Below, in pieces: positions 39,284 through 42,767 of a stretch of 64,000 nt of DNA. Under the pieces are notes generated by a model. The model was given only the letters and a program-made list of their open reading frames with translations, ran no database searches and was not told the origin of the DNA. The DNA is taken from positions 1-64,000 of the forward strand of contig CAVTZU010000013.1 in the NCBI GenBank assembly GCA_963739305.1, written 5' to 3'. Source of the stretch: Candidatus Bathyarchaeota archaeon (GTDB lineage: Archaea > Thermoproteota > Bathyarchaeia > Bathyarchaeales > Bathycorpusculaceae). Numbering within the stretch: position 1 is the stretch's first letter; the number at the start of each line of letters is the position of its first letter. The position numbers and the translations under genes were made by a program.

Positions 39284-39527
39284 GTATTTCGCCCCTTGAC
39301 ATCAAAGTAGGACAGCTATTACCGTATAAGACTTGTCAAATGGGCTTTACAGTCATAATGATTAGAAGACATTGGTCAATTCTGCGCAAGAATCCAAGTG
39401 TAGAAGACGCTCGTGGCGATTAAATGCTTCTCTTAGCGATTTGATGCAATCTTCTAATACAACTTGATGCTCTTTCTCAATGTGACTTCTATGTGGCGTT
39501 CGGGATCCAGATTTGGGGTTAGCATTG

Positions 39528-40901
39528 ATGAAGAAAACGAAGATAATCTGTACGGTTGGCCCAGCTAGTACTTCTCGAACCGTTCTCAGAAGAATGTATC
39601 GCGCCGGGATGAATGGTGCTCGAGTAAACACCGCATATGGGGCACTGGATCAGTACAAACTCATCGTTAGAAATCTTCGAGAAGTGGCGGACGTTCCGAT
39701 AATTGTCGACGTAAAAGGACCTGAAATAAGAATCAAGACAACTCGGAGAAGAAGTGTCAATCGAGGAGACATTCTTGAGGTGGGCAAAACCAAGAAAATA
39801 AGGTTCAGCAATGACGTCTACGGGGACTTGTGCGAGGGCGACATTGTTCTCATTGATAATGGCAAGTTGAGAACAAAGATAGTGGAGATACGAAATCACG
39901 TCATTAAACTGCTCGCTACCACGAGCGGCGAAATAGACGATGGAAACGGCGTGAACATCCCACATAGGAAACTCTTGAATCCCACGTTGTCAGTTAGGGA
40001 TCGGAAAATGGTGGATTTTGCAACCGAATGCAATGCCGAATTCCTAGCGCTCTCGTTCGTCAGAAACGCTCAAGATGTGAACGTCTTGAAGAAGGAGGCT
40101 GTCGGTTTCAAGGGCGCAGTGATAGCAAAGATCGAAAATTCTGAGGGTGTTGACAAATTCGATGAGATTTTGAATGTTGCGGAGGGAATTATGGTTGCAA
40201 GAGGCGATTTAGGCGTCGAAATAGAACCTGAGAAGGTCCCCAATGTCCAGAAATCAATAATCAGAAAATGCAATCAGAAAGGGAAGATCGTTGTGACGGC
40301 AACAGAAATGCTGGAATCTATGACCTATCAGCCTAATCCGACTAGAGCTGAAGTCAGCGACGTTGCCAACGCAATATTGGATGGAACGGAAGCAACGATG
40401 CTTTCAGGGGAGACGGCAGTGGGACGATATCCAGTGGAGTCTGTCTCAATGATGTCCAGAATAGCGACCGAGGCCGAAAAAGTAGTGCAGAATCACGTTG
40501 AAGACGAAGGCTTCATCAACATCTCAGACACGATGAGCAGGGCAGTTCAGAGGATATGTGCAGAAATGCCAGTAAAAAAAGTTGTCACTTTAACAAGGTC
40601 AGGCTACACAGCTCGAATGATCTCACGATTCAAGATCCCTCAGCCGATTGTCGCTGTTACACCCGACAAATGTGTCAAGAAACAGCTTGAGTTGTCATAT
40701 GGAGTCTACCCTGTTCTCATTGACTACCTCAAAGAAAAAGACCGTATTCTCGCCACAGCAACCAGGCTTCACTCAATGAGCATCATCCGCGACCGAGACA
40801 CAGTTGTTTTCATGGCGGCATTCAGGACATCCCAACAACATTCAAGCAATCTGATAGAGATACACAACATCAAAGAACTCATCCGATTAACCGAGAAATA
40901 G
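39528..40901 (+). CDS. pyk: Pyruvate kinase
   Basis: KTKIICTVGPAS, KGPEIR, AKIE, MVARGDLG, PTRAEVSD, MLSGETA. Confidence 0.95.
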   Translation: MKKTKIICTVGPASTSRTVLRRMYRAGMNGARVNTAYGALDQYKLIVRNLREVADVPIIVDVKGPEIRIKTTRRRSVNRGDILEVGKTKKIRFSNDVYGDLCEGDIVLIDNGKLRTKIVEIRNHVIKLLATTSGEIDDGNGVNIPHRKLLNPTLSVRDRKMVDFATECNAEFLALSFVRNAQDVNVLKKEAVGFKGAVIAKIENSEGVDKFDEILNVAEGIMVARGDLGVEIEPEKVPNVQKSIIRKCNQKGKIVVTATEMLESMTYQPNPTRAEVSDVANAILDGTEATMLSGETAVGRYPVESVSMMSRIATEAEKVVQNHVEDEGFINISDTMSRAVQRICAEMPVKKVVTLTRSGYTARMISRFKIPQPIVAVTPDKCVKKQLELSYGVYPVLIDYLKEKDRILATATRLHSMSIIRDRDTVVFMAAFRTSQQHSSNLIEIHNIKELIRLTEK

Positions 40902-41182
40902 CGGCAACTATCTTCAGTACTGTGTTTGAAACCTAGTGGAGGGGCATGTCGTTTCTGAATTGAAAACTCCAAAGCTATGTTGAGCAAGCCCCCCATTTGT
41001 GGGCTTGAAATGCGGTCTTCAAAATTGAGAATTGGTAGCCCGGAGTTACCGTTACAAGTGCTGGAGAATACCTTGATTGAATACTTGAAACCTCACAACC
41101 CAACAAGAATCAGCGTGCGGTTTTGTGACCAACCATAAATTTAAATAAAAAAACGCGACAATTGTAATTTGAGGCCAAAATA

Positions 41183-41230
41183 GTGCCCAAAGCCGCAAAA
41201 GGAAAGAAGAAAAAGCCCGTAAAGAAGTGA
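41183..41230 (+). CDS. Putative 15-aa Lys-rich microprotein MPKAAKGKKKKPVKK
   Basis: TATA box TTTAAATA at 41140-41147, GAGG 8 nt before the GTG start, T-tract terminator at about 41269-41280. Confidence 0.6.
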   Translation: MPKAAKGKKKKPVKK

Positions 41231-41381
41231 GAACGGAAAATCACTTACAAACGCACAGATCCACCTCACTTTCTTTTTTTATGAATAAACGCGACTTCAA
41301 TAGAATCCGCGTACAGTTTTGTTACTAACTATCAAGAATCACGGCAAAGAAAAGAGGGGAAGTATTCTCTAACATATGGAA

Positions 41382-41457
41382 TGGTAGCCCGGGAGAGATT
41401 CGAACTCTCGTCAGCGGCTCCAGAGGCCGCCATGTTTGACCACTGCACCACCGGGCT
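41382..41457 (-). tRNA. tRNA-Gln(CTG), CCA encoded
   Basis: AGCCCGG...CCGGGCTACCA, anticodon arm GCGGC-CTCTGGA-GCCGC. Confidence 0.95.
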
Positions 41458-41528: not shown

Positions 41529-41732
41529 CTATTTCTGTTTCTTCAAGGTCTCCTCAATGCAATGGCACTCTTGAGCGCTTGGATACCAATCATCACAGCA
41601 CCACAACGTCGAAACCACCGCATTCTCGTTCTTCAAAAACCTCCGCGTACAAAATACCTGATCAGGAAAATCATAGGCGTTGTGACTGGTGCAGTTCCCG
41701 CAAAACATGTGTTTGCTCGGCTTCTTCTTCAT
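41529..41732 (-). CDS. Small Cys/His-rich protein
   Basis: CGNC..H, FC, CC, CHC; starts 6 nt after the dys stop. Confidence 0.65.
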   Translation of the reverse strand: MKKKPSKHMFCGNCTSHNAYDFPDQVFCTRRFLKNENAVVSTLWCCDDWYPSAQECHCIEETLKKQK

Positions 41733-41738
41733 TGCCCA

Positions 41739-42767
41739 CTACTCCTCTGAACCAACCTTCTCGCACTTCACATTCCTGGCCCGTTTGAAATCTCTACCGA
41801 GCCTCTCTTTCACCGACGCCACCATCAACGGGAAAACAATCGTGGCATCGCCTATTACCATAGTCTTGTCTGCCTGCCCCTTGAGTTTCCCCCAGCTCAC
41901 TGTCTCCTCCAACGTTGACCCCGAAAGGCCACCTGTCTCGGGCCTATCCATCGTTATCACAACCGCGTAATCCATCCCAGACTTCGTCGCTAGAGCTGCT
42001 GACTGAATCGTGTTCCTCGGCACTCCTCCGCCGATGACAACCATGCCGTTCTTTGAACTGCCTCGACATATGTTTATGATTTCCGGCACATCCTTGAACG
42101 CATCTACGACCAATGTGTTCTTAAACTGCCTCCGCGTCGCATGCAGATTGTAGATGTATCCAAACTCTGAATCACGCACGGCTGGAATGAAAACTGGGGC
42201 TTTCGACTCGTACGCAGCACGAAGAATAGAATCCGGGTCCTTCAATCTCTTTCCTAGCTCCCAAGCGAAATCCTTGGATGACAGCGACTTGCCCCTAAAC
42301 TCGTTTGCTATCTGATCGTAGACCTTCACGAGCTCCATGTCGAGTTTTATGAAGTCTTCCTCAGGAACGAAGACGTCGTAAATGCGGTACGTGTGATTCT
42401 TGTACAACATGTAATCGTCCGCAGCCCAGTGACCCCTGTAATGATGTCCTCCCAGAGCTTCAACAGCATCGTGAACCATGTTTGCTCCAGTTGTCACGAG
42501 AACGTCGATGAGGTTTTCTCTCAGCAAACCGGAAACAAGAGATCGCAGCCCCGCGGGAACCATGGCTCCAGCAAGGGCCAGAAACACTGTGCAGTCGTCC
42601 TCACGCAGCATTCGTTCATAAATGTTACAAGCCTCAGCGACTCTCCCAGCTCCAAAGGACCCCGAATTCTGGAATTGTCGCACAAGCTGGTCCACAGTCA
42701 ATTTGCCCTTGATCTTGATGTGCTTGACGGGCTCGCGCAGAATCTCTTTCCTCTGCATCAAATTCAC
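41739..42767 (-). CDS. dys: Deoxyhypusine synthase
   Basis: TTGANMVHD, GGGVP, TGGLSG, active-site SWGK. Confidence 0.92.
   Translation of the reverse strand: MNLMQRKEILREPVKHIKIKGKLTVDQLVRQFQNSGSFGAGRVAEACNIYERMLREDDCTVFLALAGAMVPAGLRSLVSGLLRENLIDVLVTTGANMVHDAVEALGGHHYRGHWAADDYMLYKNHTYRIYDVFVPEEDFIKLDMELVKVYDQIANEFRGKSLSSKDFAWELGKRLKDPDSILRAAYESKAPVFIPAVRDSEFGYIYNLHATRRQFKNTLVVDAFKDVPEIINICRGSSKNGMVVIGGGVPRNTIQSAALATKSGMDYAVVITMDRPETGGLSGSTLEETVSWGKLKGQADKTMVIGDATIVFPLMVASVKERLGRDFKRARNVKCEKVGSEE

Follow-up and report, generated by a model that had tools for sequence, protein, structure and literature searches.

A conserved lysine-rich micro-ORF with its own expression signals as a probable microprotein gene of Bathyarchaeia

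Four groups of very short or basic peptides bear comparison with the locus described here. The ribosomal protein eL41 (also eS32; PF05162) occurs in archaea and is likewise encoded by a stand-alone gene, is very short and extremely basic, and is missed by gene callers. However, the two have no sequence relationship: the eL41 of the taxonomic family studied here is a nearly invariant 25-residue Arg/Lys peptide that contains Trp and Tyr and starts with ATG, whereas the present peptide is 13-23 residues long, has Lys as its only basic residue, lacks aromatic residues, starts with GTG, and is variable, multi-copy and patchily distributed. The tiny basic ribosomal peptides of bacteria, which came to light through structural work, resemble it in size, charge, late discovery and missing annotation. 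They belong to another domain of life and have no sequence similarity to it, and their binding to the ribosome was shown by structures, whereas the peptide described here is known from sequence alone.

The tails of linker-histone-like proteins and of H1-like nucleoid proteins of bacteria, as well as protamine-like peptides, combine Lys with Ala, Pro and Gly, and disorder and binding through charge, not fold, are expected of them and of the present peptide alike. These are domains of proteins or are much longer, whereas here the whole product is a single block of 13-23 residues; the likeness is one of composition, homology not being assessable at the peptide's length. Finally, the attenuator leader peptides of bacteria are encoded by very short ORFs dominated by one amino acid and followed by a terminator-like tract. 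In contrast, the present ORF mostly has no regulated gene downstream, has no alternative hairpins, and belongs to an archaeon.

Full-text searches of the literature listed no description of a comparable peptide, either from Bathyarchaeia or from archaea at large. In PMC11364881, ORFs are predicted from 30 nt upward, so the catalogue given there may contain the microprotein family unnamed.

Anatomy and surroundings of the micro-ORF unit

The window, that is, the whole 64,000-nt stretch of DNA that was analysed, derives from a metagenome-assembled genome of Bathyarchaeia (G000; 2.32 Mb, 36 contigs, 97% complete). The micro-ORF unit occupies a 480-nt gap between a pyruvate kinase gene on the left (39513-40901, plus strand; PF00224 and PF02887) and a tRNA-Gln(CTG) gene on the right (41382-41457, minus strand; tRNA match). 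On the plus strand, the TATA box TTTAAATA (41140..41147) lies 43 nt 5' of the start codon and is followed by an AAT element (41160..41162) and by GAGG of the Shine-Dalgarno type (41171..41174), which an 8-nt spacer separates from the GTG. The microprotein ORF (41183..41230) comprises 15 codons, of which the GTG start (41183-41185) is the first, and a TGA stop (41228-41230). A short 3' untranslated region (41231..41269) with a C-rich end follows and gives way to the T-tract TTTCTTTTTTT (41270..41280), a putative archaeal oligo-T terminator. The codons after GTG are CCC AAA GCC GCA AAA GGA AAG AAG AAA AAG CCC GTA AAG AAG. If the GTG is decoded as Met, the product reads MPKAAKGKKKKPVKK, in which 8 of the 15 residues are Lys and from which acidic and aromatic residues are absent.

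An earlier note on this DNA had reported the TATA box at 41140, the GAGG, a frame from GTG to TGA for 15 amino acids with 8 Lys, and the T-tract; all of these were confirmed in the sequence. Its view that they form a complete and unannotated unit for expressing a Lys-rich protein of very small size is supported as well; the unit is conserved across many genomes (see below). In an alignment of 32 sequences, the AA of the AAT element is invariant and the T is present in at least 90%. By the general geometry of archaeal promoters, this would be an A/T-rich promoter-proximal element located approximately 10 nt before a transcription start near 41170, and the RNA would be approximately 105-110 nt long.

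A 34-nt direct repeat, D1, brackets the micro-ORF. Its left copy (41106..41139, plus strand) abuts the TATA box, and its right copy (41302..41335, plus strand) is 79% identical and spaced 196 nt from the left one. Conservation extends to both copies in three further genomes (G002, G142 and G090). The pair might serve a regulator or recombination, or might be the scar of a duplication; for the left copy on its own, an upstream regulatory site and a leftover of duplication both come into question.

Beyond the tRNA gene, the minus strand carries a 67-codon Cys-rich ORF (41529-41732) and a deoxyhypusine synthase gene (DHS; 41739-42767; PF01916, E 8.8e-98). The Cys-rich ORF matched no Pfam family; it is probably a real small gene, since homologues occur in four other fetched loci. 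The earlier note had pointed to the closeness of the micro-ORF to tRNA-Gln and DHS. Both genes are indeed nearby on the minus strand, but a functional link did not emerge: of 148 loci, only two, including the window itself, have DHS in the flanks that were fetched, and the count for pyruvate kinase was also 2 of 148. The idea that the peptide is a modification substrate, along the lines of hypusine, or is connected to tRNA-Gln is thus unsupported, and we regard the nearness to DHS as incidental.

The neighbours of the micro-ORF vary by subtype (subtypes are defined below). The second copy in G000, on contig C32, converges on a gene for an Rce1-like protease, and the 16-residue subtype precedes a tandem ferritin-like gene in 14 loci, where the ferritin-like gene has its own promoter. 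We considered reading the function from neighbouring genes and rejected this approach because the neighbours differ and the ferritin-like gene has a promoter of its own.

Occurrence, copy number and subtypes

A genome-wide scan of G000 for short basic ORFs (12-45 codons, Lys+Arg content of 45% or more) yielded 218. An upstream TATA-like motif together with a GAGG-type site was present in just three of them, and two of the three are the micro-ORF and its paralogue on contig C32. Together with the conservation of the unit in many genomes, this indicates that the micro-ORF is not a chance occurrence. In blastn searches against 41 relatives, a block of approximately 143 nt, extending from the TATA box to the T-tract, was matched in G002, G011 and G005 but not in G001, which is a single contig; within G000, the same search recovered the C32 copy, MPKATKGKKKKPVKK.

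The genomes compared were all metagenome-assembled, and many are incomplete. A sequence-only covariance model built from five copies (R1; two from G000 and one each from G002, G011 and G005) matched 70 of the 151 sampled genomes of the taxonomic family. Retrieval of 20 of the weaker R1 matches revealed 18 true members, which share the architecture of the unit, and two false ones. A broader model built from 32 loci (R2; threshold E up to 1e-4) matched 75 of the 151 genomes, 40 of the 78 high-quality genomes, and 45 of 70 genera. The micro-ORF was not found in approximately half of the sampled genomes, including G008, which is 98% complete and belongs to the same genus as G000.

In a class-wide sample, members were found in two other families, in G275 (MPKKAKGKKKKVEKK) and in G192, where the frame starts with ATG (MASKKAKKAKKKK); the remaining weak model matches outside the family are not members. 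In another family of the class, G214 yielded a weak match (L086) that coincides with the start of a longer ORF, in which an N-terminal Lys/Ala-rich tail similar to the peptide is followed by a folded-looking domain. This ORF might be a fused analogue or a mere low-complexity resemblance.

Searches of wider scope pointed to the same class. A scan with an exact pattern across 185,579 species, each represented by one genome, returned 19 contigs, all titled Bathyarchaeia or Bathyarchaeota. When 401 genomes of the phylum were screened with a codon-degenerate pattern, four had a match, all inside the order, and the sampled genomes outside class Bathyarchaeia had none; the reversed-pattern control returned 0. 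Viral contigs gave 0 matches, and a viral origin was rejected on that basis. As far as searched, the putative microprotein family is restricted to Bathyarchaeia.

Genomes carry one to four copies, with four in each of G142 and G085. The copies fall into distinct subtypes of 13-23 residues, and each subtype is conserved across genera. The window's copy belongs to a 15-residue subtype, MPKA[A/T]KGKKKKPxKK. The others are of 16 residues, M[P/A]KAAKGKKKK[A/G][A/G]KKK; 17 residues, MAGSKTKKKKGKxxKTK; 18 residues, MSKSxTGKKKKGSKKKTK; 19 residues, MAKAKAKAKxKKKATKKKK; and 20 residues, MSKRAKGKKKKGGKKFALQK, the last from G054 (L050) and three metagenome contigs. In addition, a single 23-residue copy contains an internal repeat of the GKKKKGG block. 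The conserved feature is a set of Lys clusters spaced by small residues (Ala, Gly, Pro, Ser and Thr) rather than an exact sequence. In G000, the motif occurs only in the two micro-ORFs and in one unrelated 32-codon frame that has the GKKKK word alone. Fusion to a larger protein in this genome was rejected, as the motif is otherwise confined to the micro-ORFs.

Several further observations concern individual copies and other small ORFs. In the 18-residue subtype (L213, L217 and L219), conservation across genera nearly equals that of the gene over approximately 120 nt on the 5' side and approximately 100 nt on the 3' side, and these flanks contain no ORF or Rfam family that would explain this. 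The copy in G095 (L075) lacks 2 nt in the Lys run and has a 13-codon frame; its GAGG is changed to GAGT and its TATA box is weakened. Probably this copy is decaying or reflects a homopolymer assembly error. Other basic micro-ORFs in G000 include a 20-codon ORF, MPSKQKKKKALPKKYTKNKK, with TATA- and GAGG-like signals; this and a nearby 28-codon Arg/Lys ORF lie on contig C20, around 48295 (minus) and 49283 (plus). The genome also has three copies of a 20-30 codon Lys/Glu/Arg ORF, at C18:62465, C13:75583 (outside the window) and C11:77685.

Coding evidence and RNA-level alternatives

Fifty-four loci were read codon by codon. Every one has a Lys-rich frame of 13-20 codons (54/54). The start codon is GTG in 51 loci, TTG in two and ATG in one, and a non-start codon never occupies that position. 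Stop codons are TAA (34), TAG (12) and TGA (8). The loci encode 44 distinct peptides, and synonymous variants occur for Ala (GCC/GCA/GCT/GCG), Thr (ACA/ACT/ACC), Gly (GGA/GGG), Pro (CCC/CCT) and Lys (AAA/AAG). Length differences within the frame are multiples of three, in contrast to the 1-nt indels seen in the stretch that separates the TATA box from GAGG. A frame kept with synonymous changes was the check for which the earlier note had called, and the outcome is clearly positive in all 54 loci.

Selection was evaluated from summed Nei-Gojobori counts in four length classes. In the micro-ORF frame, pN/pS was 0.31, 0.30, 0.44 and 0.13, the lowest of the sense frames in all four classes; in the other two sense frames, it ranged from 0.69 to 1.58. 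These sums span all pairs of related sequences and are thus not independent. Purifying selection also acts at the non-Lys positions. One antisense frame that shares the wobble positions likewise had low pN/pS (0.20-0.52), so the substitution test alone does not fix the strand. The strand is instead fixed by the promoter, the GAGG, and the start and stop codons.

The antisense strand also carries, opposite the micro-ORF, a hydrophobic 42-codon ORF (41141-41269, minus strand), and the true gene could in principle be this one, encoding, for example, a small membrane or toxin-like peptide. Although its frame is open across the five closest copies, its register gave pN/pS values of 1.82, 1.33, 0.83 and 1.14, indicating no selection; 1-nt indels shift its C-terminal part; and it has no conserved promoter, since the flanks past the T-tract vary. 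We consider this reading negligible.

The TATA motif is nearly invariant in the alignment of 32 loci and lies 40-43 nt from the start, a variation of approximately 3 nt, and GAGG is invariant in 32/32. An independent set consisted of 97 contigs (19 genomic and 78 metagenomic, the metagenomic contigs returned by the scan all being at least 1.1 kb) retrieved with a pattern that spans the GTG through the final Lys codons and nothing else, so that GAGG, the stop, the T-tract and the TATA box did not enter the search. In this set, the stop yields a product of 15-20 amino acids in 96 of the 96 contigs in which the frame does not run off the end. A TATA motif is present at -46..-38 in 93 of 95 contigs, and 94 of 95 have GAGG at -14..-10. 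In 88 of 93 contigs, four or more consecutive T occur at most 80 nt past the stop (median 31 nt).

We also considered read-through of the TGA into the in-frame open stretch that follows. This was rejected: other copies end in TAA, and the downstream changes fall at codon positions 1 and 2.

The central Lys codons, AAG AAG AAA AAG, are nearly fixed even at the wobble positions, which may reflect some RNA-level constraint besides coding. This conserved purine tract, together with the shortness of the unit and its own promoter and terminator, would suit a small non-coding RNA that base-pairs through its purine-rich centre to pyrimidine-rich targets, the ORF being incidental. Such an RNA would not account for a start position limited to GTG, TTG and ATG, for stops that interchange at a fixed position, for in-frame indels, for the fixed distance to GAGG, or for the dominance of third-position variation with pN/pS of 0.13-0.44. 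Neither a conserved fold nor an Rfam family was found. Specifically, Rfam matched only the neighbouring tRNA at the locus and had 0 matches in seven related loci. With five close copies as input, RNAalifold returned -8.8 kcal/mol, and with 15 transcripts of the 16-residue subtype it returned -2.3 kcal/mol; neither fold had a compensatory pair. With neither a covariance-model match nor compensatory changes, a structured non-coding RNA was rejected, and the broader proposal of a small pairing RNA is in our view highly improbable.

A different possibility is that translation of the Lys-codon run matters and the peptide itself does not. The ORF would then be a leader or sensor that responds to lysyl-tRNA supply or ribosome stalling and controls the 3' part of its own RNA or a downstream gene. 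Lys accounts for more than half of the codons, and the 3' untranslated region is approximately 85-90% conserved within the closest subtype. Moreover, in the 20-residue subtype (L050, 1548-1921, from G054, and three metagenome contigs), the RBS and ATG of a 104-codon gene follow at most 13 nt past the stop, the only arrangement that looks co-transcribed. In the window and most other loci, however, a T-tract follows the ORF, and the next gene is on the opposite strand or has its own promoter. The 3' untranslated region diverges between subtypes while the peptide pattern persists, no alternative or conserved RNA structures were found, and the purifying selection at non-Lys positions also speaks against this role. 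An attenuator leader peptide in the strict sense was rejected, as the downstream tRNA-Gln and Rce1-like genes lie on the other strand and hairpins are not conserved. We judge a leader or sensor role improbable overall.

On the comparative evidence, the micro-ORF is very probably a real, selected coding gene. That it represents a real, conserved, stand-alone and previously undescribed microprotein gene family of Bathyarchaeia appears well supported.

Ribosomal and nucleic-acid-binding readings of the peptide

The earlier note had listed ribosomal eL41 among known very short basic proteins and had proposed, as one reading, an unannotated ribosomal or chromatin microprotein; to judge from its composition, the peptide may have either role. 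In Bathyarchaeia, canonical eL41 is a different gene, encoding 25 residues (consensus MRAKWKKKRMRREKRKRKKRRARYK) with a mean column identity of 91%. A profile made from the family's own eL41 sequences matched 69 of the 151 family genomes; the eL41 loci examined were L089-L109. In G000, eL41 was not found with PF05162 (E up to 10), the family eL41 profile or a residue-pattern scan. With the family profile, it was likewise not found in the other sampled genomes of the same genus (0/4) or in several other genera (g2, g3, g4, g32, g33 and g38). There may have been a lineage-specific loss of eL41 in part of these archaea.

The Lys-rich peptide and eL41 occur together in approximately 25 of the 151 genomes (e.g., G018, G044, G045, G061, G100, G124 and G131), where approximately 32 would be expected if they were independent, in a tally corrected for weaker members. 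Since eL41 is a separate gene and the two co-occur, the peptide is neither eL41 nor a simple substitute for it. Identity with eL41 was rejected, as neither PF05162 nor the family eL41 profile matched the peptide or anything else in G000. Replacement of eL41 was also rejected: an anti-correlation with strong R1 matches vanishes when the weaker true members are counted, and it follows phylogeny.

A ribosomal role need not involve eL41. The peptide could be a dedicated ribosomal or ribosome-associated micro-subunit that sits in a defined rRNA pocket, as do very small basic ribosomal proteins of other lineages. The gene has a strong consensus promoter and RBS and is stand-alone, tiny and extremely basic, as is that of eL41. 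Further, with eL41 undetected in G000 and its genus (0/4), there may be a gap that could in principle be filled. The approximately 25 of 151 genomes with both genes nevertheless argue against replacement. The gene is unlinked to ribosomal genes, and the products, at 13-23 residues, conserve composition rather than sequence, unlike eL41. The gene is also patchy (40 of 78 high-quality genomes) and has one to four paralogues. That it was not found in approximately half of the sampled genomes suggests that it can be dispensed with or replaced, and this counts against its being a core component of the ribosome; for nucleic-acid binding, the patchy presence says nothing positive. A dedicated ribosomal micro-subunit is, all told, unlikely. 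Granted that the gene is a real coding gene, we would call a specific ribosome-bound peptide doubtful.

Database searches did not point to a described family: Pfam and NCBIfam returned 0 families for a 20-residue variant at E up to 10, and the PDB sequences contained 0 chains for a 23-residue variant. Conservation of the Lys-cluster pattern and not of the exact sequence suggests that the product is most likely a disordered polycation. The Lys blocks with small spacers, the lack of aromatic and acidic residues, and the variable length and copy number point to a polycation acting on nucleic acids. A counter-ion or chaperone for DNA or RNA would, by inference, fit better than a precisely fitted ribosomal subunit.

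We infer the following course of events, from transcription to biochemical function. The TATA box and the A/T element would drive an RNA of approximately 105 nt, carrying GAGG 8 nt before the GTG, the 15-codon frame, a short 3' untranslated region and an oligo-T terminator. Met would likely be removed from MPKAAKGKKKKPVKK to give a 14-residue peptide with eight Lys. This peptide would be a disordered polycation that binds polyanions by charge neutralisation, above all nucleic acids, that is, nucleoid DNA and/or RNA. In this it would be akin to the tails, rich in Lys, Ala and Pro, of linker-histone-like proteins, or to an oligoamine encoded by a gene.

The chromatin proteins found in G000 are one histone, a plain, tail-less 73-residue fold, and four Alba genes. 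Taken as a whole, a stand-alone microgene for a nucleic-acid-binding polycation is the best explanation that the sequence comparisons suggest, and we lean modestly towards it. If the gene is taken as a real coding gene, a general nucleic-acid-binding polycation would fall a little short of an even chance, and some other function would be a minority possibility.

A more specific form of the polycation reading, which we put forward tentatively, is that the free oligolysine peptides (14 residues in the mature form of the window's copy) may constitute a tunable multigene family, either as an encoded polyamine or as a histone tail provided in trans. They would neutralise the charge of the nucleoid or of RNA, with copy number and repeats of the Lys block setting the dose. 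The internal GKKKKGG repeat of the 23-residue copy fits such a charge-dosage function.

Genes this short escape annotation pipelines, and the present case indicates that comparative genomics alone can establish a gene of 15 codons. This one comes with its own promoter, RBS and terminator and spans dozens of genera of an abundant, largely uncultured class of archaea. As the peptide can be synthesised, it is a concrete and cheap target for tests with DNA, RNA and ribosomes. If made in the cell, it would add a new family to the few micro-polycations, such as eL41-like peptides and protamine-like proteins. If the oligolysine reading is true, these genes would rank with the shortest stand-alone protein genes so far known to be conserved in archaea, and their products would represent a new class of chromatin or RNA counter-ion.
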